DNA of 64,000 bases from Gemmatimonadota bacterium (GTDB lineage Bacteria; Gemmatimonadota; Gemmatimonadetes; Palauibacterales; KS3-K002). Made by a program: the position numbers and the translations under genes. Every line of letters starts with the position of its first letter. The stretch's first letter is position 1. Shown here piece after piece: positions 2,749 to 53,112 of the stretch. The stretch covers positions 48,507 through 112,506 of the forward strand of contig JBDHJS010000001.1 in the NCBI GenBank assembly GCA_039586795.1. The letters run 5' to 3'. A model generated the notes under the pieces. That model saw only the letters and a list, made by a program, of their open reading frames with translations, made no database searches and was not told the origin of the DNA.

Positions 2749-4479
2749 TCATTGGCTGCCGAGGCGCACTTCCATTCGCGTCATGCCGCCCTTTTCAGAA
2801 CGCACCGTAATCGAGAGACGCGGGTCACTTCCCGCCGAGCGTACCACGTACTCGAAGGTCCGGCGCGCGGCGGCTGTCCCAGTCCGGCCCTGGGTGTCCC
2901 GCGTGCCGAGAAGGTGGCCGAGGTCGGCCCGCGCCTGACCTGAGACCAGCTCTGCATCGGATAGGTCTAGAGTCACGCGGACCGGCACCGCGACATTCGC
3001 GTCCAGCGCCCGCCGTGTGATGTTCGTCGGCAGATAGCCTTCGTTCTCGACGACGCCGGTGATCTTGAACAGGCCGGAGCCCAACGACTCGGTCTCCACG
3101 TCCTTGAGAACCACCCGAGGGCTGATCTCAGCCAGCCACAGCATCCACGGCACGTACAACTCGAGCTCGCCCTTCAAGAACTGCGACGGTGGGTTCTGGC
3201 GCGTGAACTTGCTGCGCCAGCCGCCGATCTCGACCCGGCCAAGCTGGGGATGGTCGTAGGCCGTCCAATCGGCGAAGCCTTCACCGTCCAGCTCTTCCTC
3301 GTTCCATCGGTGCCGCTCGGCTTCCGAGACGTTGCCGTCATCATCGTAGTCGCGACCGAAGCCGCCCCAGAACTCGGGGACGAAGGCGACAACACCGAAG
3401 TCCCAGTACGACCACGAAATCAAAGTGCCGTAACGGTGGATGCGCGGGTTGCTGTAGCTGGGAATTGCTCGTTGCCCGGTGGTCGATTCGTACTTACGCG
3501 ACATCTCCAAGATCAAGGACTGGTCAGACAGAACGTAGTCGTCCCACGATGTAGTGGACGGGAGTCGGAACAGGAAGCCACCGGACGTGTGCCCATGGAA
3601 CACTCCGGTGATGTTGCGGTGCGAATTGAGGAACTCGATCGTCGCCCGGGTCTCGGGCTCAGACAATGGATAGGGTCCTGCACCGGTCTGCTCGAACTCC
3701 ATCCCCCAGTTGCGCGGGAAGTTACGATTCATGTCGATGCCGCCTGGCCCATCTTCGTTGAACAGGCCGTCGTCATCGTCATCGATTCCCTCTGAGTAAA
3801 CCGCGAAGAACTCGCCCTCGAAGTCCTCATCGCCGCGGCGCTCCATGATGCGCGAGTCGGACCGGTTCACCTTCCAGCGACCGTTGGCATTGGGCACACG
3901 CATCTGCGTGATGGCGCCGTCGCCGTCCAGGTCGTTCCCCGGATCCTCATCCAGTAATCCATCGCCGTCCTGGTCGTACGGGCGTGGGGTGCTCCGCAGG
4001 TTCTGCTCAGTATTCAGCGCGATGTCCGCGCCATCCGGATTGAACTTCGGCCGGACGTACAGCGTCCTCGTATCGACGAGGCGAGTGACCCGGTCATCAC
4101 TGCCGTAGTTGGAGAGGAGATACCAGGCGAAGTGAAGCGCCACCTCGGCACCGGTCAGCTCGCCGGCGTGGATATTCCCATCGTAATAGTAGCCGGGTTT
4201 CTCGCCCGCTGCGCCCGTACCCTTGTTCGTGATCTCCAGGACGAGGAGCGGCGTACCCTCCAGCGTCTCACCGATGGAGTACAGCCGGGTTAGCTGCGGA
4301 TACGCTTGCGCCCAATCCTCGAGCAACGCGTATGCCCGCTCGGTGGAGTGGTAGGTGTTCCAGCTGGGATCGCGGGGGTTCTCATCCTGGGCGAACAGCG
4401 GTACCGCCGAAGAAGGAGCGAGCACCAGGCTCCAGCAGGCGAACACAATCAGATAACGCCTAATGGCATCAGCAGGCAT
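2749..4479 (-). CDS. secreted zinc carboxypeptidase, peptidase M14 family, with Asp-rich Ca-binding-like insertions
   Basis: Signal peptide; HxxE zinc motif region (NIHAGELTGAE) and M14-like fold signature; two DxDxDG-like acidic loops (DQDGDGLLDEDPGNDLDGDG and GIDDDDDGLFNEDG). Confidence 0.7.
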   Translation of the reverse strand: MPADAIRRYLIVFACWSLVLAPSSAVPLFAQDENPRDPSWNTYHSTERAYALLEDWAQAYPQLTRLYSIGETLEGTPLLVLEITNKGTGAAGEKPGYYYDGNIHAGELTGAEVALHFAWYLLSNYGSDDRVTRLVDTRTLYVRPKFNPDGADIALNTEQNLRSTPRPYDQDGDGLLDEDPGNDLDGDGAITQMRVPNANGRWKVNRSDSRIMERRGDEDFEGEFFAVYSEGIDDDDDGLFNEDGPGGIDMNRNFPRNWGMEFEQTGAGPYPLSEPETRATIEFLNSHRNITGVFHGHTSGGFLFRLPSTTSWDDYVLSDQSLILEMSRKYESTTGQRAIPSYSNPRIHRYGTLISWSYWDFGVVAFVPEFWGGFGRDYDDDGNVSEAERHRWNEEELDGEGFADWTAYDHPQLGRVEIGGWRSKFTRQNPPSQFLKGELELYVPWMLWLAEISPRVVLKDVETESLGSGLFKITGVVENEGYLPTNITRRALDANVAVPVRVTLDLSDAELVSGQARADLGHLLGTRDTQGRTGTAAARRTFEYVVRSAGSDPRLSITVRSEKGGMTRMEVRLGSQ

Positions 4480-4558: not shown

Positions 4559-7459
4559 CTAGCGATGCTCCCGGCTGGCGAGCAGCGTCAGGCGCTCCGC
4601 CGCGTAGTCGACCAGCGGGCGAAGTTCGGGGTCGCAGTCGCGCCACAGCGCGATGAAGGTTTCGTAGTGATGGGCAGCCAGGGCATCGTCGCCCAGGCGC
4701 TCGTAGATCTCGGCGCGCTTGAGATGGGAAGGGGCCAGGTAGATCAACTCGCGCGACGAGCTGGCGGTGAACGAACTATACCAGTTGAGAGCTTCCTCTT
4801 CGCGACCGGCGGCGGCGAGCAACTCGGCCCGGGTATAGCGCTCGAAGGCCTGCGCGTAGAAGAGTGAGGCGGCCATGTTCTGGTACCAGCTTTGTACCGT
4901 CGCCTGCTCCAACTCGTGGATGGCATCCTCAGGTTCTCCCTCGGCGATAGCGACCTGAGCGCGGATCGACTGGGCGAGGTCGCCCGCCAGCTCGGTCACC
5001 TCGTCGGGTCCGTCGAGCTGCCCCAACTCCTGTGCGTACTGCAGCGCCGCGCCGCCGTCATCGAGTCGCGCGCTCAGAAGTCCCAGCAGGTAGAGCCTCA
5101 GGTGCGCGTGCGCTTCATCGTGAACGCTGGACCACGTCATGCGCGCCGCGCTCTGGCGCCACTCGTCTGACGTCCAACCCCGAAGCTCGGATCGAATGGC
5201 TTCCAGCTCCGCGTCAGTTGTACCCAGAAACGGAGTGGCGGAAAGCAGCGCCCTGTACTCGAGCGCCGAAACGGCATCAAGGGAGGACGCGATATTCAAT
5301 TCTACCCTGGCGTCCCGCCATTTCCCCTGAGCCAGGAGCAGCGATGCGCGGATCGTGTGTCCCAGCGCGCGTACATCGGAGGGGTAGGCGGGGTCGGTGA
5401 GCATGCCGACGACTCCCACGGCGCCATCCAGGTTGAGCGTGAAGACCGGGACGCTCCAACTCATGACCATCAACTGGTCGAGCTCGGCGAATCGCATCTC
5501 GGACATGACTTGCTGCTGACCCTGCTCGTCACCGATCACGAACTCCCGCAGCGCGCGAACCTCGAGCGCCCTGTCGTCGTCGGGATGAAGCGCCAGGTAA
5601 CGTTCGACCAGCTCTACCAGCTCATCCGCATCCCCTTCCAGGGCGGAAATCCGGATCAAGTGCGTTAGGGCGTGGACTTCGTTGGGCTCGAAGAACAGGA
5701 CGCGCTCGAAGGGCGCTCGGGCCTCACCGATGGAGCGACCGTAGTACGGAGCGAAGTGGAAGAGAAGCTCACCCAGCTGGATCCACGCCTCAACGTCATC
5801 CGGGTGCGTGCTGAGGATCGCGCGGTAGAGACGCTCCGACTCCCTGGGATCGCCCAGCCGGTAGGCGTGAAACGCCTCGAACAGGTCACGGTCGTGATCG
5901 GAGAGCCGACTGCTCAGGCGGTAAGCCTGTTGGGCGCTGAGTTCGACGAGATCGGAGCGCACCATCCAGTCGGCGGCGACGCCGAGGCGATACCAGGCGA
6001 GGGCGAAGGTGGTGTCGAGCTCGGTAGCGAGCTGGAACGCTTCGGCCGCCGGCGCGAAGTACCCCGCGCGAAACGCCCGCTCCCCCTCCAGGTAAGCCTT
6101 GAGCGCCGGTAGCGAGCTGGTCGTCACTTCGGCGATGCGAGTCGCGCCGCTCCCAAGGCTTTGGCCGACGAGAAGCTGCGCGGCTACCTCGTCGACGAGA
6201 TCGAAGAGACTCTCAGCACCGCCCTCGGCAGATGCGTGGGCGACGGCGTCGAGCCCCGCATTCGGATCGAACAGCGACGCGTCGAGCTTCAAGTTTCCGC
6301 GCACCTCGACGATACTGCCGAGCACGTAGAGGCCAGCGCCCAGACCGCTTGCAATACCCTGCGCCTCCTCAGGATCCGGCACGCCCAGGCCTTCTTGCTC
6401 CACCAGGCTCAGCACGGCGCGCGGGTCGGCGCTGCGCAATTCTCCCGCGCCGTCCAGCGCGGTGCTCAGCAAGTCGACCATCCCCATGCTGAGATAATCG
6501 AAGCTGCTGCTGCCACCCACCGAGAACGGCAGCACGGCGATCCGCATCTGCGAGACCGGCGGCGATCGTGGCATCCACAGGTCACGCAACCCCCAGGCGC
6601 CGCCGACGACGATCACCAGCGCGAGCGTCGCGGCCAGCGCTTTCGACAGCAGCGTGGCATGGCGTGCGGCCGATCCTTCCTGCGCTCGGTTGAGCGCAGC
6701 GCGAAAGGCGCCCGCGTCGGCCCAGCGGTCGGCCGGCTTCATGGCGAGGGCGCGCTTAAGGACTCGAGCCAGATTCTGGGGTACGCCCGTCCAGTCCGCC
6801 TCCTTGACCGGCGTGAGCATCGACCAGCGGCGGCCGGTGAGGGAGTCGTAGAGTACCATTCCGACGGCATAGAGGTCGGTTTGCGTCGTGACTTCATCAC
6901 CCGTGACCTGCTCCGGCGCCATGTGGCCCGGCGTCCCCACCCGCTGGCCCGGCTCGGTGATGGTGGAATCTCTATCGTGGTGCTTGGCGATCCCGAAGTC
7001 GCCGAGCAACGCATGGTCGTCAACGAGGAAGATGTTGCTCGGCTTGATGTCGCGATGGACGATGCCGCTCCCGTGCACCGTTTCCAGCGCCGAGAGCATG
7101 TCGTTCCCCAACTTCACCGCCTCTTCACGGGGCAGCGGGCCGCGATCCAGCCGCTCCTTCAGCGTCTCCCCTTCCACATAGTCCATGATGTAGTAGAAGG
7201 ACTCGCCGATCTCGCCGGCGTGGTAGATGGAAACGACGTTGGGATGCCGGATGCGAGCCAGGATTCGGGCTTCTTCGAGGAGACGTTTCGATGCCCGGGG
7301 GTCATCGAGATCGTGACGGTGGACCTTCACGGCGACGGTCCGGTCCAGCACCGTGTCGTGGGCCAGGAAGACCGTCCCCATCCCACCGCTCGCCAGCTCC
7401 CGCTCCACCTCGTACTGAGGCGGAAGAGCTTCGCGCAGCCGCTCGAGCAGAGAGCTCAT
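4559..7459 (-). CDS. membrane Ser/Thr protein kinase with large C-terminal TPR-like extracytoplasmic domain
   Basis: N-terminal Hanks kinase domain (GxGGMGTV, VAVK, HRDIKPSNI, DFG, APE), one TM segment (LALVIVVGGAWGL), then ~650 aa helical repeat region. Confidence 0.85.
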   Translation of the reverse strand: MSSLLERLREALPPQYEVERELASGGMGTVFLAHDTVLDRTVAVKVHRHDLDDPRASKRLLEEARILARIRHPNVVSIYHAGEIGESFYYIMDYVEGETLKERLDRGPLPREEAVKLGNDMLSALETVHGSGIVHRDIKPSNIFLVDDHALLGDFGIAKHHDRDSTITEPGQRVGTPGHMAPEQVTGDEVTTQTDLYAVGMVLYDSLTGRRWSMLTPVKEADWTGVPQNLARVLKRALAMKPADRWADAGAFRAALNRAQEGSAARHATLLSKALAATLALVIVVGGAWGLRDLWMPRSPPVSQMRIAVLPFSVGGSSSFDYLSMGMVDLLSTALDGAGELRSADPRAVLSLVEQEGLGVPDPEEAQGIASGLGAGLYVLGSIVEVRGNLKLDASLFDPNAGLDAVAHASAEGGAESLFDLVDEVAAQLLVGQSLGSGATRIAEVTTSSLPALKAYLEGERAFRAGYFAPAAEAFQLATELDTTFALAWYRLGVAADWMVRSDLVELSAQQAYRLSSRLSDHDRDLFEAFHAYRLGDPRESERLYRAILSTHPDDVEAWIQLGELLFHFAPYYGRSIGEARAPFERVLFFEPNEVHALTHLIRISALEGDADELVELVERYLALHPDDDRALEVRALREFVIGDEQGQQQVMSEMRFAELDQLMVMSWSVPVFTLNLDGAVGVVGMLTDPAYPSDVRALGHTIRASLLLAQGKWRDARVELNIASSLDAVSALEYRALLSATPFLGTTDAELEAIRSELRGWTSDEWRQSAARMTWSSVHDEAHAHLRLYLLGLLSARLDDGGAALQYAQELGQLDGPDEVTELAGDLAQSIRAQVAIAEGEPEDAIHELEQATVQSWYQNMAASLFYAQAFERYTRAELLAAAGREEEALNWYSSFTASSSRELIYLAPSHLKRAEIYERLGDDALAAHHYETFIALWRDCDPELRPLVDYAAERLTLLASREHR

Positions 7460-31830: not shown

Positions 31831-33210
31831 ATGATCCGCACGAAACGGCTGCTTCTTCCTATCGCCATCGGTGTAATGCTCGTACTCGGCACCACGCCAG
31901 CTGCGCTGTCGGGACAGGAACGCCCCCTGGGCACGCTCCGCGACCAGGCGCGGATCGAGCAAAGTTGGCTCGAGCTGCGACTCGAGCGCGTGCTGCCCCG
32001 CTTGATGCGCGAGTACGACGTCGACATGTGGATCATCCCGATGCGGGAGTACAACGAGGATCCGGTCTTCGTCGGCCTCGTGTCGCCCACTACGTTCGCG
32101 GCGCGGCGCCGCACGATCTACGCGTTCTGCGATCGAGGAGTTGAAGAAGGCATCGATCGCATCGCCGTCGGCGGTAGCTCCCAAGGCGGCCTGTACCGCG
32201 TGGTTCGCGATCCAAATGCAGCGACCGGCGCCGCCGCGGGCCAGAATCGCCAGGCCGAGCCCTGGGGCCCGGATCAGTGGAACCTGCTTCCGCCGATCAT
32301 CGAGGCCTGCGACCCGGACAGGATCGCCGTGAATATCTCGCACACGTTCGCCTTCTCGGATGGTCTGTCGGCGGGCGAATGGGAGCAGATGTCGGCCGCG
32401 ATACCCGAGATGTACAAGGATCGAGTCGTACGAAGCGAGCAGCTCGCCCTCGACTACATCTCGGAGCGACTACCCGAGATGCTGCCGATCTACATCGAGA
32501 TGATGGAGATCGCCCACGAGATCATCGCGACGGCGTTCTCGAATGAGGTGATTACACCCGGCGTCACTCGAACCCAGGATGTGGTCTGGTGGATGCGTCA
32601 GCGTCTGAACGACTTGGGGCTGGGCACATGGTTCCAGCCATCGGTCGATGTGCAACGCCGCGGTGGATTGGGCGACGACGCAGGGAACCCAGTCATCATC
32701 CACGGCGACGTCCTGCATTGTGATTTTGGCGTCACGGCGCTGGGACTCAACACCGACACGCAGCACATGGGCTACGTGTTGCGGCCGGGTGAATCAGATG
32801 CACCCGCCGGTTTATATGCCGCGCTGGCCAACAGCAATCGAATGCAGGACATCACGATGGACGAGCTGGAGCCGGGGCGAACGGGGAACGAGGTATTGGA
32901 GCGGTCGCTACGGCGGATGAGAGACGAAGGCATTGATGGAACGCTCTACAGCCATCCGGTGGGCGATCACGGGCATGGTGCCGGTCCGCTGGTCGGGTTG
33001 TGGGACCGGCAGGACGGCGTGCCGGGTCGCGGCGATGTGCCGGTGAAGGTGAACACGTGGTATTCCATCGAGCTGCAGTCGGGGACGCCGGTGCCGGAGT
33101 GGGATGATCAGGTGGTGCGGATGGCTTTGGAGGAGGACGCGTATATCGATGGTGAGGGGAAGCGGCATTGGGTTTTGTCGCGGCAGGAGAGGTTTCATCT
33201 GGTGAAGTAG
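31831..33210 (+). CDS. secreted M24-family metallopeptidase (Xaa-Pro aminopeptidase/creatinase-like)
   Basis: Signal peptide; pita-bread fold metal-ligand context HGDVLHCDFG, HPVGDHGHG. Confidence 0.7.
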   Translation: MIRTKRLLLPIAIGVMLVLGTTPAALSGQERPLGTLRDQARIEQSWLELRLERVLPRLMREYDVDMWIIPMREYNEDPVFVGLVSPTTFAARRRTIYAFCDRGVEEGIDRIAVGGSSQGGLYRVVRDPNAATGAAAGQNRQAEPWGPDQWNLLPPIIEACDPDRIAVNISHTFAFSDGLSAGEWEQMSAAIPEMYKDRVVRSEQLALDYISERLPEMLPIYIEMMEIAHEIIATAFSNEVITPGVTRTQDVVWWMRQRLNDLGLGTWFQPSVDVQRRGGLGDDAGNPVIIHGDVLHCDFGVTALGLNTDTQHMGYVLRPGESDAPAGLYAALANSNRMQDITMDELEPGRTGNEVLERSLRRMRDEGIDGTLYSHPVGDHGHGAGPLVGLWDRQDGVPGRGDVPVKVNTWYSIELQSGTPVPEWDDQVVRMALEEDAYIDGEGKRHWVLSRQERFHLVK

Positions 33211-43938: not shown

Positions 43939-44892
43939 CTAAGGTTCGCGGGTGCGTATTCCGAAGGCGCCGCCGAAGAAGTTCTCAGGGACCTTTCCGG
44001 TCACGGTTCGCGACCGTTTCTGCCGGTAGATCTGGAACGTGACCTCTTCATCTTCCTCGTAGGAACGGAGGATGCGCATCGCGTGACTAGGGCTCTGTAC
44101 CGCGCGGCCGTCGATCGCCTGAATCACGTCGCCGGCAATGAGGCCCAACTCACTGTCTTCGGGAGCGCTGAGGACCAGCAGGCCTTCGTCTGTGCCAAAG
44201 TACTCGCCGAGATCCGGATTGAGCTCGACAAGCTCTAATCCCGGGACGCGCTCGCCGATGGCGATGGCGAAATTGCGGGGCGCCTGGATCTGAACCTCGG
44301 GAAGTTCGCGCAGGCGGTATGACAGCGTGCGGAACCGATCGCTCATCGAGTCGTTGAATTCGCTGGTCCAGCCGATGGCGTAACCCTCAAAATCACCAAC
44401 GACCAACTCCGCGGTGTGCTCGTCCCCGTCACGCCGGTACTTGACGGTAACCGTGTCGCCCATCTCCAGCTCCCGGGCAAGCGCCGATAGCCGCTGTCCC
44501 GGACCGGAGAGCTCCTGACCCGGAGCGCCTTCCAGGTCGTAGTCCTCGAATCCCTCGAGCACGCTGTTGCCGTCGAGCTCGATGATGATATCGCCGGCGC
44601 GAATGCCTGCCTTGTCGGCGGGGCCATCCTCGCTCACGTCATCGATCAACGCGCCGTAACGGTCGGTCTCCGGGTTGGCTTCGGTGTGGATGTAGACGCC
44701 CAGCCGAGCCCGCTGCCCGAAGTAGAAGACGTTGCGCCCGGCATCGCCCAGGCGGGGAGCGACATAAACGCCGCCCACGTTGACGCGGGGGCAAACGCAG
44801 TCCTGATCTCTGTCTTCATCCTGCGCTTGCGCCGGCACCGACGTCGCCGTGGCTATCAGCGCTCCCACGAGTAGAAACTGTACCCACCTCAT
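43939..44892 (-). CDS. secreted PDZ-domain protein (two PDZ domains)
   Basis: Signal peptide from the internal Met (MRWVQFLL) with AGGAGG RBS, verified as CAT at 44890-44892; PDZ signatures GIRAGDIIIELDGNSV and GLIAGDVIQAIDGRAV. Confidence 0.7.
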   Translation of the reverse strand: MRWVQFLLVGALIATATSVPAQAQDEDRDQDCVCPRVNVGGVYVAPRLGDAGRNVFYFGQRARLGVYIHTEANPETDRYGALIDDVSEDGPADKAGIRAGDIIIELDGNSVLEGFEDYDLEGAPGQELSGPGQRLSALARELEMGDTVTVKYRRDGDEHTAELVVGDFEGYAIGWTSEFNDSMSDRFRTLSYRLRELPEVQIQAPRNFAIAIGERVPGLELVELNPDLGEYFGTDEGLLVLSAPEDSELGLIAGDVIQAIDGRAVQSPSHAMRILRSYEEDEEVTFQIYRQKRSRTVTGKVPENFFGGAFGIRTREP

Positions 44893-44951
44893 CTCGTTCT
44901 GCCTCCTGTCATGTATGCGCTTCATACTTGACCCTGTGTTCGTCTCTCGGC

Positions 44952-45635
44952 CTATCGCCAGACCGAAGTGGATGTTTGAACCGGTGTGTCCACCGGTCGC
45001 GCTTCACCTAACTGGATGCCGACAAGGGTCTCAAGCGTCGCAGTGCGCTCGTTCCACAGATTGACAAGGACGCGGCGGTCAACGCCGAGCTGGCGGCTTT
45101 CATGGATCATGCCGTCGAGAATCAGGATCCGATCCTCGAGCGCGGAAACGGCGATCGCCGTCGGCGCGTCGTAGACGCGGTACTGCGTCGGGTACGTTTG
45201 GAGAAGTGTTTCAAGCTCACGCGAGCGGTTGATGTACAGCTCGAGGTCGGGAGTCGCTTCGGCCACCCGGCCCTCCTCAACCGGGGCAACGGTTCCGTCC
45301 ACGACGGGACCCGGTGTAATCGGTTCGCCGCCACGCAGCAAGATGAAGCCGGTCAACGCGGCTGCTGCAGCGAGCCCAACCGTTCCGGCGCCCCACCAGC
45401 GACGCTTTCGCCGCTGGCTCACATCGGCGGCAACGTTCGTCCACAAGTCTCGCGGCGGCGTGAACGCGGGTAGCGCCTTCAGTTCCGCCCTGACTCTGAA
45501 GAGGCGCTCCAGTTCGCGCCGGCAATCCTCGCACGACTCCAGATGCGTCTGAGCATGCGCCGACCCCTCACCATCTCTCTCGGCCAGCAGTTCGTGCATC
45601 TCCAGATGTCGCAAGTTTACCATCAGTCCAACCAC
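44952..45635 (-). CDS. membrane anti-sigma factor (zinc-finger HxxxCxxC type)
   Basis: HLESCEDCRREL motif, TM (TVGLAAAAALTGFILL); immediately downstream of and overlapping the ECF sigma gene. Confidence 0.6.
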   Translation of the reverse strand: MVGLMVNLRHLEMHELLAERDGEGSAHAQTHLESCEDCRRELERLFRVRAELKALPAFTPPRDLWTNVAADVSQRRKRRWWGAGTVGLAAAAALTGFILLRGGEPITPGPVVDGTVAPVEEGRVAEATPDLELYINRSRELETLLQTYPTQYRVYDAPTAIAVSALEDRILILDGMIHESRQLGVDRRVLVNLWNERTATLETLVGIQLGEARPVDTPVQTSTSVWR

Positions 45636-46159
45636 TCCCGCAGACGTTTGTGCGCTCTCGATAGCTGTGACTTCGAGAAGCTGGCTGTCTTGCCCATCAT
45701 CTCGCCAATCTCTTCGTGCGTGTAGCCTTCCACGTCATGCAGCCAGAGCACCGAACGGGTCACCGGAGTCAAACGCCCCAGGGCGGCCTCCAGATCGATC
45801 GGTCCCGTCGGCTCCGGTGGATTCGTGCCGATCAATTCCAAGCTAATCACCTCGCCAGAGACCGTGCGTCGCGAACGGTTCCGTTCGCGACGCAGCAGCA
45901 TGAGCGCCTTGCTGACCGCCACCTGGCGGATCCAGCCCCAGAGGGAGCCGTCACCGCGATAGCGCCTGATGGACCGACACACCTCGACAAACGTGTCCTG
46001 CAGCACATCTTCCGCATCCTCTTCGTTGCCACAGATTCGGCGCCCCAGGTTGTAGACCTGGGTTCGATAGGCGCGGTAGACGCTCTCCAGGGCCTCGAGG
46101 TCCCCAGCCCGGGCGCGCGCCACCAGGGCATCGGCCAGCACTAAAGCATCGCTGCTCAT
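45623..46159 (-). CDS. RNA polymerase sigma-70 factor, ECF subfamily
   Basis: Region 2 (DVLQDTFVEV) and region 4 (VLWLHDVEGYTHEEIGEMMGKTASFSKSQLSRAHKRL). Confidence 0.85.
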   Translation of the reverse strand: MSSDALVLADALVARARAGDLEALESVYRAYRTQVYNLGRRICGNEEDAEDVLQDTFVEVCRSIRRYRGDGSLWGWIRQVAVSKALMLLRRERNRSRRTVSGEVISLELIGTNPPEPTGPIDLEAALGRLTPVTRSVLWLHDVEGYTHEEIGEMMGKTASFSKSQLSRAHKRLREWLD

Positions 46160-49610: not shown

Positions 49611-52600
49611 TTAGAAGCCGGGCGAGAAGCCGAACTGCCAGAACCAACCTTTGCTGGGCCGGCTGAGCGGGCGCACGAAGTCGACCTCCAACAGCAAGAC
49701 GCCGAACAGGTTGATTCGGGAGGCGATGCCGACGGAAGCGATAGGGCTCCAGGGGTCGATGTTCCCGCCGATCCTCGCTGCCGCGGACTGGCTCCACCAC
49801 GCCGCACCGACGTCGAAGAAGAAAGCCATGGTGAACGGCGGCAGACTGCCCGGAGCACGCCAACCGAAAACTTGCGGGATCGGCATGCGCAGCTCGAAGT
49901 TCGCCATCAGCATCCTGCTGCCGAACAACTGATCGTATACCGGGCAACCGGCATTGTTATTCGGGTCAAAGAAGCTGTCGTTCCCCTGGAGCTGATCGGC
50001 GCACTCGCGACTGGAGAAGCTACCAGGGTCGTAACCCCGGAGTAGCTGCTGGTAGCCGATGAACAATGGGGTGAGCCTGAAGTCCTCCCCGTCTTTGCCG
50101 AAGCGGCCGAACTGGAGCAAACGCCCGGCGAAAGTGATGTTGCGGAACGGCATGAAGTAGCGGCGGTAGTCAAACAGGGTACCGATGTAATTCAACGACC
50201 CACCGGTGGGCGCTACCTCGACGCGGTAGCGCTGTCCAAGCACGGGCCCCGTGAAGCCGAAGATGGTATTGTCGTAGACCATCGCCGCCGTACCCGACGC
50301 CAGGTTCAGGGCCGGCTGGTTGCAGAACGGATCAGTTGGATCATCGCTACAAGACGGAAAATCCTGTCTCTCATCACCGATCTGCTGGCCGCTGGCCGTG
50401 AACGTGCGAGTTCTGATCTCCGTCTCGAACGAGATGTTGCGAGCCCTGGCGGTGAACTCGATCCGCTGCGCGCGGCTGAGTGGATACGTAACCAGAGCTT
50501 GTATTTCGCGGCTGGTCTGCCGGAAACGCAGCTCCTGTTCTACGAGGTTACCGTTGTCGTCGATGCCGACGGCGAAATTCTGCGTCACGATCGGAAATTG
50601 AGATACGGCGGCCCCCCAATTCCAACGGGACTTGCGGTTCTCGTAGCTAACCAGCGCCGCGATGTCCTTGATGCTGCCGTTGACCTGGAGCATGGTGGCC
50701 AGGTTGTGCTCACCGAGAATGTCGCTCCAGAACAGGGAGGTACCGCCGCCAACGAACGTGCCGTAGCGATCGCTCCCGACAGCTACGTTGGGTGGCGCGA
50801 TGTAGTCCAGCGAAAGACCAGCCTTGTAAGGTGCCGACTCGAAATCGTACGCCGTCCTCGGCAACCCGAGGTCAGGGTTGTTGACCAGGGCCATCACATC
50901 ACCCACAGCCCGATCGGCGGGCGGAAGAACCGCCGGGCTGATGGCGCTGATCGGACGAGCTATCGGCTCCCCTGCGAGGACCTCCTCAGACTCGATGGAA
51001 TAGAGGGAGTACTGATTGCCCTCGAAGGCGCTGAATACCATGCGCTGCCCGTTCGCGGATAGCGTGATGGCTGGACTCAGGTCGGTTATACCGCTGACAC
51101 CCGTCGTGAGGTGGGTGATCTGGCGAATCTCGCCGCTGTCAAGCCAGACTCTGTATACGTTGCTGATACCGTTCTGGTCCGACAGAAAGAAAACGCTCTC
51201 ACCGTCAGCCGCCCACTGGGGATTGATGTTCTTCGCACCATCGAAGCCCGGGACGTGGGTGACGGTACCGGTCTCAATATCGAGCAGGCCGAGTTCGTAG
51301 GCCCCCCACTCCAGTCGTTCCATGTTCGTGGAAAAACGGTCCGTGACGAAGACGACGTAACGTCCGTCAGGGGACCAGACGGGCTGGAGGTCAGCGTAGG
51401 GATCTTCTGTGAGCCGCGTGACCTCACGGGTCTCAACGTCGATGTAGAAGAGGTCCATCAGGCCACCGACGCTGGCCGAGAAGACGATCTTACTGCCATC
51501 GGCAGAAAACGTGGGGTTGAAGATCTCACCTACTTCGTCCACGCGATGCTCGACAATGGTCTTGCCGCGTTCGGTGTCTATCACGGTCAGGCTTGGAACG
51601 CCTCTTACGACACCGGCAAAGACGAATTCCCTGCTATTCGGATGGAAACTGCCCGCCGAGTTGATGAATTGAAGACTCTCGTAGTGCGGGTCTGACGCGG
51701 TCTTGACGAGCTTCTTTCCAATCTCGCCGGTCTCGGCATCGGCCGAGAACATCTCGATATGGAAGTAGTCCTTCTCCGTGAGAAAGACGAGATTGGAACC
51801 ATCGGGACTGATCGCCGGCGCTACGTTGTAGAAACCGCTTCCCTGCTGCTTCGAGATGAGCATGCGCCCATAGTCGAGCGGACCGCCGGTCTCGGACAGA
51901 ACATCTTGATAAGCTTCGTCGATCGCCGCCTGCCAGTCGGCGATCAGCTGATCCGGCGCAATCTCGAGCACCGTAGCAAGGGCGTGCCCCGGATCGCCGG
52001 TCATCGATGCCGCCTTGAGGATTTCTCCGACCGCAGGGTCACCCCAGCGACCGCCGACGTAGGCCCAGAAGGCGTGTCCGTACCGATAGGGATTGTAAAC
52101 CGGGTTATAGAGCTGGGCGTAGGACGGCAGCTTAGCGCGGCGAGCCGCGTCGTGCATCCACATGGCGGTCAGCGTGTACTCTGGACCGAGGGACAGGTAC
52201 TCGGCCATCCCCTCGATGAACCAGAGGGGCATAGCGAGGGCGATCGGAAAACCACCGCCGACCGCGGAGCGCGAGGCCGTCGTGATGTCGAACTGGAAGG
52301 CGTGAACGAGCTCGTGGCCGAGCACGTGGTCGGTCTCTTTGAGCGAGCCGGCCATCGGCAAGACGACACGTCGTTTGAACGCCTCGGTCACACCCCCGGT
52401 GCCTTCATCGATAGCTCCCATGAGAGCCGTCGTCTGCTCGAAATCGGGGTGGTCCGCATACAGAATGATTATCTGGCGGCCGCTGAGCTCGTGATTGAAG
52501 ATCCGACTGAGGCGGGCATACCAGCGCTCCGCCATGCGTCCCGCTTCCTCAACGGCTTCACGCGCCTCAGGGTAGTAGTGGATATCGAAATGTTCGGTCT

Positions 52601-52745
52601 TCAGTACCTGGAAATCGAAGTTCTCGTACTGGACCTTGTTGCGACCGAAGTACTGAGCTTCGGCCGGCTGCGGCAGTAGTGTTGACCCGAGCGTCGCTGA
52701 TACCAGAATTCCACCCGCTACCACTCGGGCACGATCAAGTCGCAT
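49611..52745 (-). CDS. large outer-membrane-associated protein: N-terminal HExxH metallopeptidase-like domain, TolB-like PD40 beta-propeller repeats, C-terminal Omp85-like beta-barrel
   Basis: Signal peptide; HELVHAF zinc-like motif; at least five xSPDG repeats (ISPDGSNLVF, FSADGSKIVF, WSPDGRYVVF, WAADGESVFF); C-terminus alternates hydrophobic residues and ends in Phe (FGFSPGF); GGAGGT RBS. Confidence 0.6.
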   Translation of the reverse strand: MRLDRARVVAGGILVSATLGSTLLPQPAEAQYFGRNKVQYENFDFQVLKTEHFDIHYYPEAREAVEEAGRMAERWYARLSRIFNHELSGRQIIILYADHPDFEQTTALMGAIDEGTGGVTEAFKRRVVLPMAGSLKETDHVLGHELVHAFQFDITTASRSAVGGGFPIALAMPLWFIEGMAEYLSLGPEYTLTAMWMHDAARRAKLPSYAQLYNPVYNPYRYGHAFWAYVGGRWGDPAVGEILKAASMTGDPGHALATVLEIAPDQLIADWQAAIDEAYQDVLSETGGPLDYGRMLISKQQGSGFYNVAPAISPDGSNLVFLTEKDYFHIEMFSADAETGEIGKKLVKTASDPHYESLQFINSAGSFHPNSREFVFAGVVRGVPSLTVIDTERGKTIVEHRVDEVGEIFNPTFSADGSKIVFSASVGGLMDLFYIDVETREVTRLTEDPYADLQPVWSPDGRYVVFVTDRFSTNMERLEWGAYELGLLDIETGTVTHVPGFDGAKNINPQWAADGESVFFLSDQNGISNVYRVWLDSGEIRQITHLTTGVSGITDLSPAITLSANGQRMVFSAFEGNQYSLYSIESEEVLAGEPIARPISAISPAVLPPADRAVGDVMALVNNPDLGLPRTAYDFESAPYKAGLSLDYIAPPNVAVGSDRYGTFVGGGTSLFWSDILGEHNLATMLQVNGSIKDIAALVSYENRKSRWNWGAAVSQFPIVTQNFAVGIDDNGNLVEQELRFRQTSREIQALVTYPLSRAQRIEFTARARNISFETEIRTRTFTASGQQIGDERQDFPSCSDDPTDPFCNQPALNLASGTAAMVYDNTIFGFTGPVLGQRYRVEVAPTGGSLNYIGTLFDYRRYFMPFRNITFAGRLLQFGRFGKDGEDFRLTPLFIGYQQLLRGYDPGSFSSRECADQLQGNDSFFDPNNNAGCPVYDQLFGSRMLMANFELRMPIPQVFGWRAPGSLPPFTMAFFFDVGAAWWSQSAAARIGGNIDPWSPIASVGIASRINLFGVLLLEVDFVRPLSRPSKGWFWQFGFSPGF

Positions 52746-53112
52746 CTGTACCTCCGTAGTGCCTGATCACACCAAAACCGACGCCAGGCACCGTTTTTAG
52801 GCGGTTCACTCCGGTGAGGCACGATTGCCGCTGGCGGCCCGATTGCAGGTGCTTGAACAAGCGCTAGGGACTGAAGATACGCTTGGTAGGCGACCTGCGC
52901 GACCCGTGAGAGAGCGGAAATCGGCATCGCCGAATGGCCCAGCGGAGTGCGTAATCGTCGGTATATGTTAGAACGCCTCAGCGACCCCATAGTTCCGTTT
53001 TGGAGGGCGATTGCCGCCCCGGCGGCCCCCAGCTAGAATCCTCTCTTACCGGGACGATCCAATTCCGTAAATGCGAGCTGATTTCACATATAGGACAGCA
53101 GGTTGATGCGAT

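Follow-up and report, generated by a model that had tools for sequence, protein, structure and literature searches.

The stretch of DNA considered here, referred to below as the window, is 64,000 bp long and comes from a Gemmatimonadota bacterium (assembly GCA_039586795.1, contig JBDHJS010000001.1, positions 48,507 to 112,506). An open reading frame (ORF) on its minus strand, running from ATG to stop over positions 49611 to 52745, encodes a protein of 1044 residues in which a predicted metallopeptidase head, a β-propeller, and an Omp85-type β-barrel follow one another behind a signal peptide. An earlier note, made from the letters of the DNA alone, had given this ORF exactly, leaving its strand unstated, and the features that it listed, namely a signal peptide, HELVH, SPDG-type blades, and a C-terminus reading ...FGFSPGF, are all present. 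Its division of the protein into an HExxH domain, a PD40 propeller, and an Omp85 barrel agrees with the Pfam matches to PD40 and PF01103 and with the conserved motifs described below. The lengths it assigned do not hold, the head being about 260 residues rather than about 200 and the barrel about 400 rather than about 250.

The ORF is a genuine gene, since more than 8000 homologues came out of a database search and the top 120 of these, mostly from Gemmatimonadota metagenome-assembled genomes (MAGs), are full length (48–100% identity, about 1000–1080 residues, 97–100% query coverage). A Shine-Dalgarno sequence, GGAGG, can be read 6 nt 5′ of the ATG, and the GC content by codon position is coding-like (GC3 0.76 vs. 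GC2 0.45). The predicted model of the full-length protein has a pLDDT of 83.1 and a pTM of 0.80. Coordinates of the features are given in Table 1.

The head contains the only HELVH of the protein, at residues 144–148. This motif is invariant in 61 of 61 close sequences and in 26 of 26 sequences of a cross-phylum set representing at least eight phyla, and in the predicted model it lies on a long helix formed by residues 135–156. H144 and H148 are predicted to be two zinc ligands and E145 the catalytic base. On the next helix, residues 174–186, the segment WFIEGMAEY carries E178, present in 60 of the 61 close sequences (the remaining one has Asp), and E182, present in all 61; in the cross-phylum set neither varies. 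The pair resembles the E166/D170 pair of thermolysin and the M1 motif WLNEGFA, and by this analogy E178 is a candidate third zinc ligand and E182 a candidate second-shell acid. Also invariant in both sets are Y220, R221, G118, and T120, with Y220 a candidate for the transition-state Tyr. The gluzincin site that the earlier note had suspected is thus backed by an invariant or near-invariant acidic pair on the helix after HELVH, as far as conservation can tell.

Fold comparison reveals a thermolysin-like catalytic fold in the head, and its closest structural relatives include the secreted endopeptidases M30 lugdulysin and M9 collagenases. A sequence-profile search of the N-domain against the PDB gave no meaningful matches, leaving fold comparison as the informative approach, and no curated MEROPS or Pfam peptidase family scores above threshold on the head of the query. 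Among the 26 family members of the cross-phylum set, the head matches BSP in 26, Peptidase_M9 in 21, and Peptidase_MA_2 in 20 (best E = 1.8e-11). Conservation, too, peaks in the head, at 66% mean identity to the query vs. 54–55% for the propeller and the barrel. With its catalytic residues invariant and its conservation above that of the other parts, the head argues for an active enzyme and not a decayed fold. The assignment of the head to the gluzincins appears well supported at the level of both sequence and fold.

The head nevertheless stands apart from the gluzincins that it resembles. Its identity to M30 hyicolysin and lugdulysin, M9 collagenase, and the M1 enzymes, including tricorn-interacting factor F3, is only 11–15%. 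The spacing is HExxH-x29-E178, in contrast to HExxH-x18-E in M1, and G117-G-V-T-E121 stands where M1 has the exopeptidase motif GxMEN. The M1 N-terminal β-domain, the M1 C-terminal ARM domain, and the M9 activator domain are all absent. An identity as an M1 aminopeptidase was rejected because GxMEN and the x18 spacing are lacking; PF01433 (M1) matches a single one of the 26 family members (E = 0.037), and hhalign of the N-domain profile with the catalytic domain of Escherichia coli PepN aligns only HExxH, at a probability of 5.8%.

Ahead of this domain, the Sec signal peptide would be cut between MRLDRARVVAGGILVSATLGSTLLPQPAEA and QYF; a lipobox Cys is absent. The signal peptide is weakly conserved (24% identity). 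The mature protein begins, directly from the cleavage site, with QYFGRNKVQY, which is invariant or nearly so across phyla and has a pLDDT below 50 in both AlphaFold models. This N-terminal peptide may have a function, such as autoinhibition or strand swapping.

The propeller has six xS(P/A)(D/N)G-type blades, at about residues 313, 368, 414, 458, 512, and 563, and matches Pfam PD40 with E = 7.9e-21. The TolB model TIGR02800 gives 107 bits vs. a cutoff of 343 and matches the propeller alone. TolB identity was rejected, as the N-terminal α/β domain of TolB is missing and the score lies below the equivalog level. An identical protein is recorded on JGI metagenome contig 3300041024 / Ga0451564_001416, and members of the database cluster bear only the names "Tol biopolymer transport system component" or "hypothetical protein". 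Because the TIGR02800 match is below cutoff and limited to the propeller, the former name is, on the sequence, best taken as an over-annotation. Resemblance to tricorn, TolB, and BamA pieces had also been suggested; as to tricorn, Pfam Tricorn_N and Tricorn_2nd do match the propeller and the likeness holds for that part only, while Foldseek against 1k32 gives a TM of 0.2. A tricorn protease, which requires two propellers, a PDZ domain, and a serine-protease core, was rejected for want of these. The S9 prolyl oligopeptidases, DPP-IV, and tricorn are, moreover, serine hydrolases, whereas the enzyme here is a predicted metallopeptidase placed N-terminal to its propeller.

Between the propeller and the barrel lies a conserved linker, which occupies the position of the POTRA domains in other Omp85 proteins. 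No β-α-α-β-β unit of the POTRA type was found in residues 587–640 of the model, and POTRA families of Pfam match neither the query nor any of 25 cross-phylum members at E ≤ 1. The C-terminal part is a 16-stranded Omp85-type barrel, matched by PF01103 at residues 823–1032 (37.6 bits vs. a gathering cutoff of 24), and in structure its nearest relatives are BamA, Sam50, and TamA, not the TpsB transporters. The loop-6 motif RGY (residues 903–905) is invariant in the close and the cross-phylum alignments and is HMM-aligned to VRGY of Neisseria gonorrhoeae BamA (4k3b). F976, D978, and G980, of the motif that locks loop 6, are invariant across phyla and aligned with LFADAG of the same BamA. Of 61 aligned homologues, 60 end in Phe and one in Trp, and PGF is nearly invariant. 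The earlier note had allowed for a head without a third zinc ligand or peptidase fold and for a soluble C-terminus; what is found instead is a candidate third ligand, a peptidase fold, and a membrane barrel. In the first strands of the barrel, the Gly-rich DRxGTxxGGG is highly conserved to invariant and has a pLDDT below 50; judging from the model, it could be a flexible seam or gate of the barrel. Cysteines number only four in the whole protein and are confined to loops of the barrel. C799 and C808 belong to an insertion, PSCSDDPTDPFC, that is specific to the query among the aligned set. C915 and C934, just after RGY, occur in most members and are absent from those of Bacteroidota and Ignavibacteria.

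Table 1. Features of the Omp85-fusion gene and its product; positions are those of the window.
Feature	Residues	Positions	Strand	Basis
Shine-Dalgarno GGAGG		52751..52755	−	sequence reading
Sec (SPase I) signal peptide, predicted cut after AEA	1–30	52656..52745	−	sequence reading
Mature start QYFGRNKVQY	31–40	52626..52655	−	
Gluzincin-fold (clan MA-like) metallopeptidase domain, predicted	31–290	51876..52655	−	
HELVH (H144, E145, H148), predicted two zinc ligands and catalytic base	144–148	52302..52316	−	invariance, model helix
E178-G-M-A-E182 within WFIEGMAEY	178–182	52200..52214	−	conservation; helix after HExxH helix
Single six-bladed TolB/PD40-type β-propeller	294–586	50988..51866	−	
Conserved linker with motifs LPPxxR, NPxxGLP, YxxxLxLDY	587–640	50826..50987	−	
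Omp85 (BamA/TamA/Sam50-like) β-barrel	641–1044	49614..50825	−	
Gly-rich DRxGTxxGGG	~653–667	~50745–50790	−	
C799/C808	799, 808	50319–50351	−	
R903-G904-Y905, Omp85 loop-6 (V/I)RG(F/Y) motif	903–905	50031..50039	−	invariance, HMM alignment
C915/C934	915, 934	49941–50003	−	
F976-F-D978-V-G980, Omp85 (F/G)xDxG motif, locks loop 6	976–980	49806..49820	−	
C-terminal strand GWFWQFGFSPGF, terminal Phe, β-signal-like		49614..49649	−	

An architecture of this kind has been catalogued before. The Omp85/TpsB superfamily was split into ten bacterial subfamilies, among them a non-POTRA "WD40-like" group with the Pfam architectures PF01103 plus PF07676 in one to five copies (Heinz and Lithgow 2014, Front Microbiol 5:370, PMC4104836). 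Table S3 of that paper gives template matches for about 100 WD40-like members: BamA or TamA (4k3b/4c00) for the barrel, TolB (2w8b/2ivz) for the WD40 part, and, as best aminopeptidase hit, 1z5h (tricorn F3), 4kxd, 3qnf (ERAP1), or 4ar1/4ar9 (collagenases). The three fold assignments that we reached independently are the same. The main text of PMC4104836 treats the propeller only, proposing a BamA–BamB-like fusion, and never discusses the peptidase domain; a passing mention in PMC11358297 speaks of WD40 and peptidase domains that are divergent, and PMC11116518 describes such subfamilies as "not well characterized" and as "intriguing targets".

By its architecture and taxa, the present protein is assigned to the WD40-like Omp85 subfamily. 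Its architecture is identical (a barrel with PD40 repeats, no POTRA, and an aminopeptidase/collagenase-like N-terminal part), and no architectural difference sets it apart; the taxa overlap as well, those of the subfamily being Bacteroidetes/Chlorobi, Ignavibacteria, Gemmatimonadetes, delta-proteobacteria, and some gamma- and beta-proteobacteria. The novelty implied in the first reading of the sequence therefore falls away, since the architecture is that described in 2014 (PMC4104836): we are dealing with a new metagenomic member of an experimentally untouched subfamily. What is added to the catalogue is that the catalytic set and the Omp85 lid-lock motifs are conserved across phyla, that the propeller has six blades, that POTRA domains and conserved gene neighbors are absent, and that the family is much larger.

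Other Omp85 proteins differ more. BamA, TamA, and Sam50 have POTRA domains, in whose place the present protein has the peptidase and the propeller, and the BamA model TIGR03303 gives 33 bits on the query vs. a cutoff of 297. Closer in plan is PlpD of Pseudomonas aeruginosa (PMC11116518), in which a hydrolytic enzyme domain likewise stands N-terminal to an Omp85 barrel; PlpD, however, combines a patatin lipase with one POTRA, whereas here a gluzincin and a propeller come without POTRA. Membership in the type Vd/PlpD group was rejected. Among experimental precedents for a barrel-anchored enzyme that faces the periplasm, PlpD is, by analogy, the best one.

We propose, with a probability of roughly 0.6, that the protein is a zinc metallopeptidase anchored in the outer membrane (OM) and facing the periplasm, with access to its active site controlled by the propeller. 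After Sec export, the BamA-type barrel would hold the gluzincin and the propeller at the periplasmic face of the OM, and the short conserved linker would serve in place of POTRA domains. The propeller would capture or size-filter unfolded polypeptides or oligopeptides of the periplasm, as in prolyl oligopeptidase, DPP-IV, and tricorn-type enzymes, and the captured peptides would then be cleaved at the HExxH...E zinc site. It is the analogy with S9 and tricorn-type enzymes that suggests this gating or delivery role. The barrel would mainly anchor and position the protein at the membrane, as has now been shown for PlpD.

As regards orientation, all solved Omp85 proteins have, to our knowledge, their N-terminal domains in the periplasm. 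PlpD had long been assumed to secrete its patatin domain through the barrel, but that domain was shown to be exclusively periplasmic (PMC11116518). Given these precedents, the head and propeller of the present protein would probably be periplasmic too, and not surface-exposed as the earlier note had it. A surface-exposed, peptide-capturing protease, whose head and propeller were translocated through or alongside the barrel in a type V-like manner and digested extracellular proteins for nutrition, is in our judgment very unlikely. PD40/TolB propellers are typically periplasmic, and no known partner-free route would take an N-terminal passenger of about 610 residues, propeller included, through a 16-stranded Omp85 barrel. 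It is true that many of the host phyla (Gemmatimonadota, Acidobacteriota, Bacteroidota, Ignavibacteria, and Myxococcota) are degraders of proteins and polymers and that lugdulysin and the collagenases, relatives of the head by fold, are secreted; the head and propeller are, however, cysteine-free, and no type IX secretion system (T9SS) or other sorting signal was found in the sequence. Surface delivery was also raised for other enzyme–Omp85 fusions (Heinz and Lithgow, PMC4104836), but for the model case, PlpD, it has been overturned by the periplasmic location of its enzyme domain (PMC11116518).

Catalytic competence of the head is likewise probable, since the metal ligands, the catalytic Glu, and the downstream Tyr are strictly conserved and the head is the most constrained part. 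The same residues bear on another view, in which the head and propeller form a non-catalytic binding module that holds peptidoglycan stem peptides or a Pal-like lipoprotein and so tethers the OM to the cell wall. Pseudo-enzymes usually lose the catalytic Glu, whereas E145, the candidate Y220, and the metal ligands are strictly conserved across at least eight phyla, as is typical of active enzymes. We therefore give such a tether little credence, even though the propeller is TolB-like and TolB binds Pal; a TolB-related suggestion of Heinz and Lithgow (PMC4104836) would also favor it.

Several points weigh against a periplasmic peptidase held by a passive barrel. The Pfam matches of the query N-domain, to DUF6055, BSP, and Peptidase_M9, are all below curated cutoffs. 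QYFGRNKVQY and DRxGTxxGGG are highly conserved and yet of low confidence in the model, and the proposal leaves their role unexplained. The literature that we found on this architecture consists of the 2014 classification and passing mentions, with no experimental work. Finally, the lid-lock motifs that functional insertases and translocases carry are retained in full by the barrel; a pure anchor might not need them, and there might thus be room for an active role of the barrel.

One way of filling that room, which we find rather improbable, is that the barrel, with its lid-lock and Gly-rich first strand, opens laterally, engages β-signal-bearing or stalled outer-membrane proteins (OMPs), and passes them via the propeller to the gluzincin. 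The invariant mature N-terminus might then be an autoinhibitory or strand-swapping element, by analogy with the lid of PlpD. If so, a single-polypeptide, POTRA-less machine for OMP quality control, "BamA+BepA in one chain", would be widespread among non-model diderm phyla. Quality control or assembly of OMPs may also be envisaged with an active barrel that recognizes β-signals, a propeller that acts as a BamB-like scaffold, and a peptidase that destroys stalled substrates, BepA-like on one chain. We consider this unlikely as well. The conserved C-terminal Phe, the invariant lid-lock motifs RGY and FxDxG, and a barrel that in structure resembles BamA, Sam50, and TamA more than TpsB would all suit it, but the protein is without POTRA, the substrate-binding domains of BamA and TamA, and its propeller is a six-bladed one of the TolB/PD40 type where BamB has eight blades. 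Zinc peptidases (BepA, YcaL, and LoiP) do police OMP assembly (PMC13067283), and a BamA–BamB-like reading was proposed by Heinz and Lithgow (PMC4104836); no conserved partner genes, however, accompany the best 80 loci.

The barrel-anchored periplasmic peptidase proposed here is of interest because Omp85 proteins are at the core of OM biogenesis, and subfamilies with an enzyme in place of POTRA have been flagged as uncharacterized (PMC11116518). With the conservation of the catalytic set of the head and of the barrel motifs, the hypothesis is sharpened from a "BamA–BamB-like scaffold" to a "membrane-anchored periplasmic metallopeptidase". Residues H144, E145, E178, Y220, and R903 offer themselves as targets for mutation.

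The family is large. Searching with the head domain, counted in clusters at 50% identity, gave 3185 matches at E ≤ 1e-3, 1852 at E ≤ 1e-10, and at least 601 at E ≤ 1e-30. Almost without exception, the best 150 are proteins of about 1000 residues with the domain beginning near residue 20–50; shorter entries look like fragments truncated by contig ends. A few entries have the head well inside the chain, namely one of 1284 residues (P0194, residues 289–533) and one of 471 residues (P0240, residues 200–451); either a variant architecture or an artefact of gene calling may account for them.

With each species represented by one genome, a motif-seeded scan gave at least 600 matches; tblastn confirmed 585 of those listed, and full-length homologues exist in at least 585 species genomes from many diderm phyla. 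The best 80 of these loci are all full length and come from Gemmatimonadota, Acidobacteriota (Vicinamibacterales, Aminicenantes, and Bryobacterales), Bacteroidota, Ignavibacteria, Eisenbacteria, and one Betaproteobacteria MAG. Conservation over the full length spans Gemmatimonadota, Acidobacteriota, Bacteroidota, Ignavibacteria, Eisenbacteria, and some Proteobacteria. Full-length homologues also lie on six MAG contigs labeled as the monoderm groups Bifidobacteriaceae, Acidimicrobiia, or Eubacteriales (L007, L035, L038, L043, L059, and L074); these contigs are likely mis-binned or mislabeled.

Downstream, the gene is convergent with an AstE/AspA-like gene across a gap of 73 bp; upstream, it is divergent from a gene for a TrkA-type K+ channel across 367 bp. 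It is therefore monocistronic. The surroundings are ordinary chromosome, with gyrB, recF, gyrA, and rho. De novo clustering of the neighbors of the best 80 loci revealed no conserved operon partner, the largest shared family being present at 6 of 80 loci, and with no conserved neighborhood the protein appears to function with no operon partner dedicated to it. Among the matches listed, a GCS2-CBS protein, the AstE-like protein, the K+ channel, gyrB, and recF recur as neighbors only in the closest relative (L001).

About 3.5 kb from the gene, on the same strand, lies a cluster at 43939-46159 (−) with an ECF-type sigma factor (45623-46159), a 227-residue ORF that has no Pfam match and is possibly an anti-sigma factor, and a double-PDZ protein (43939-44925). 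This cluster, which may be an envelope-stress module, is shared only with L001 when the best 80 loci are compared, again among the matches listed. Elsewhere, the window holds an M14 zinc carboxypeptidase at 2749-4479 (−), an M24 peptidase at 31831-33210 (+), and a 966-residue Ser/Thr kinase with TPR repeats at 4559-7459 (−). These genes are consistent with a peptide-oriented lifestyle and have no link to the Omp85-fusion gene.

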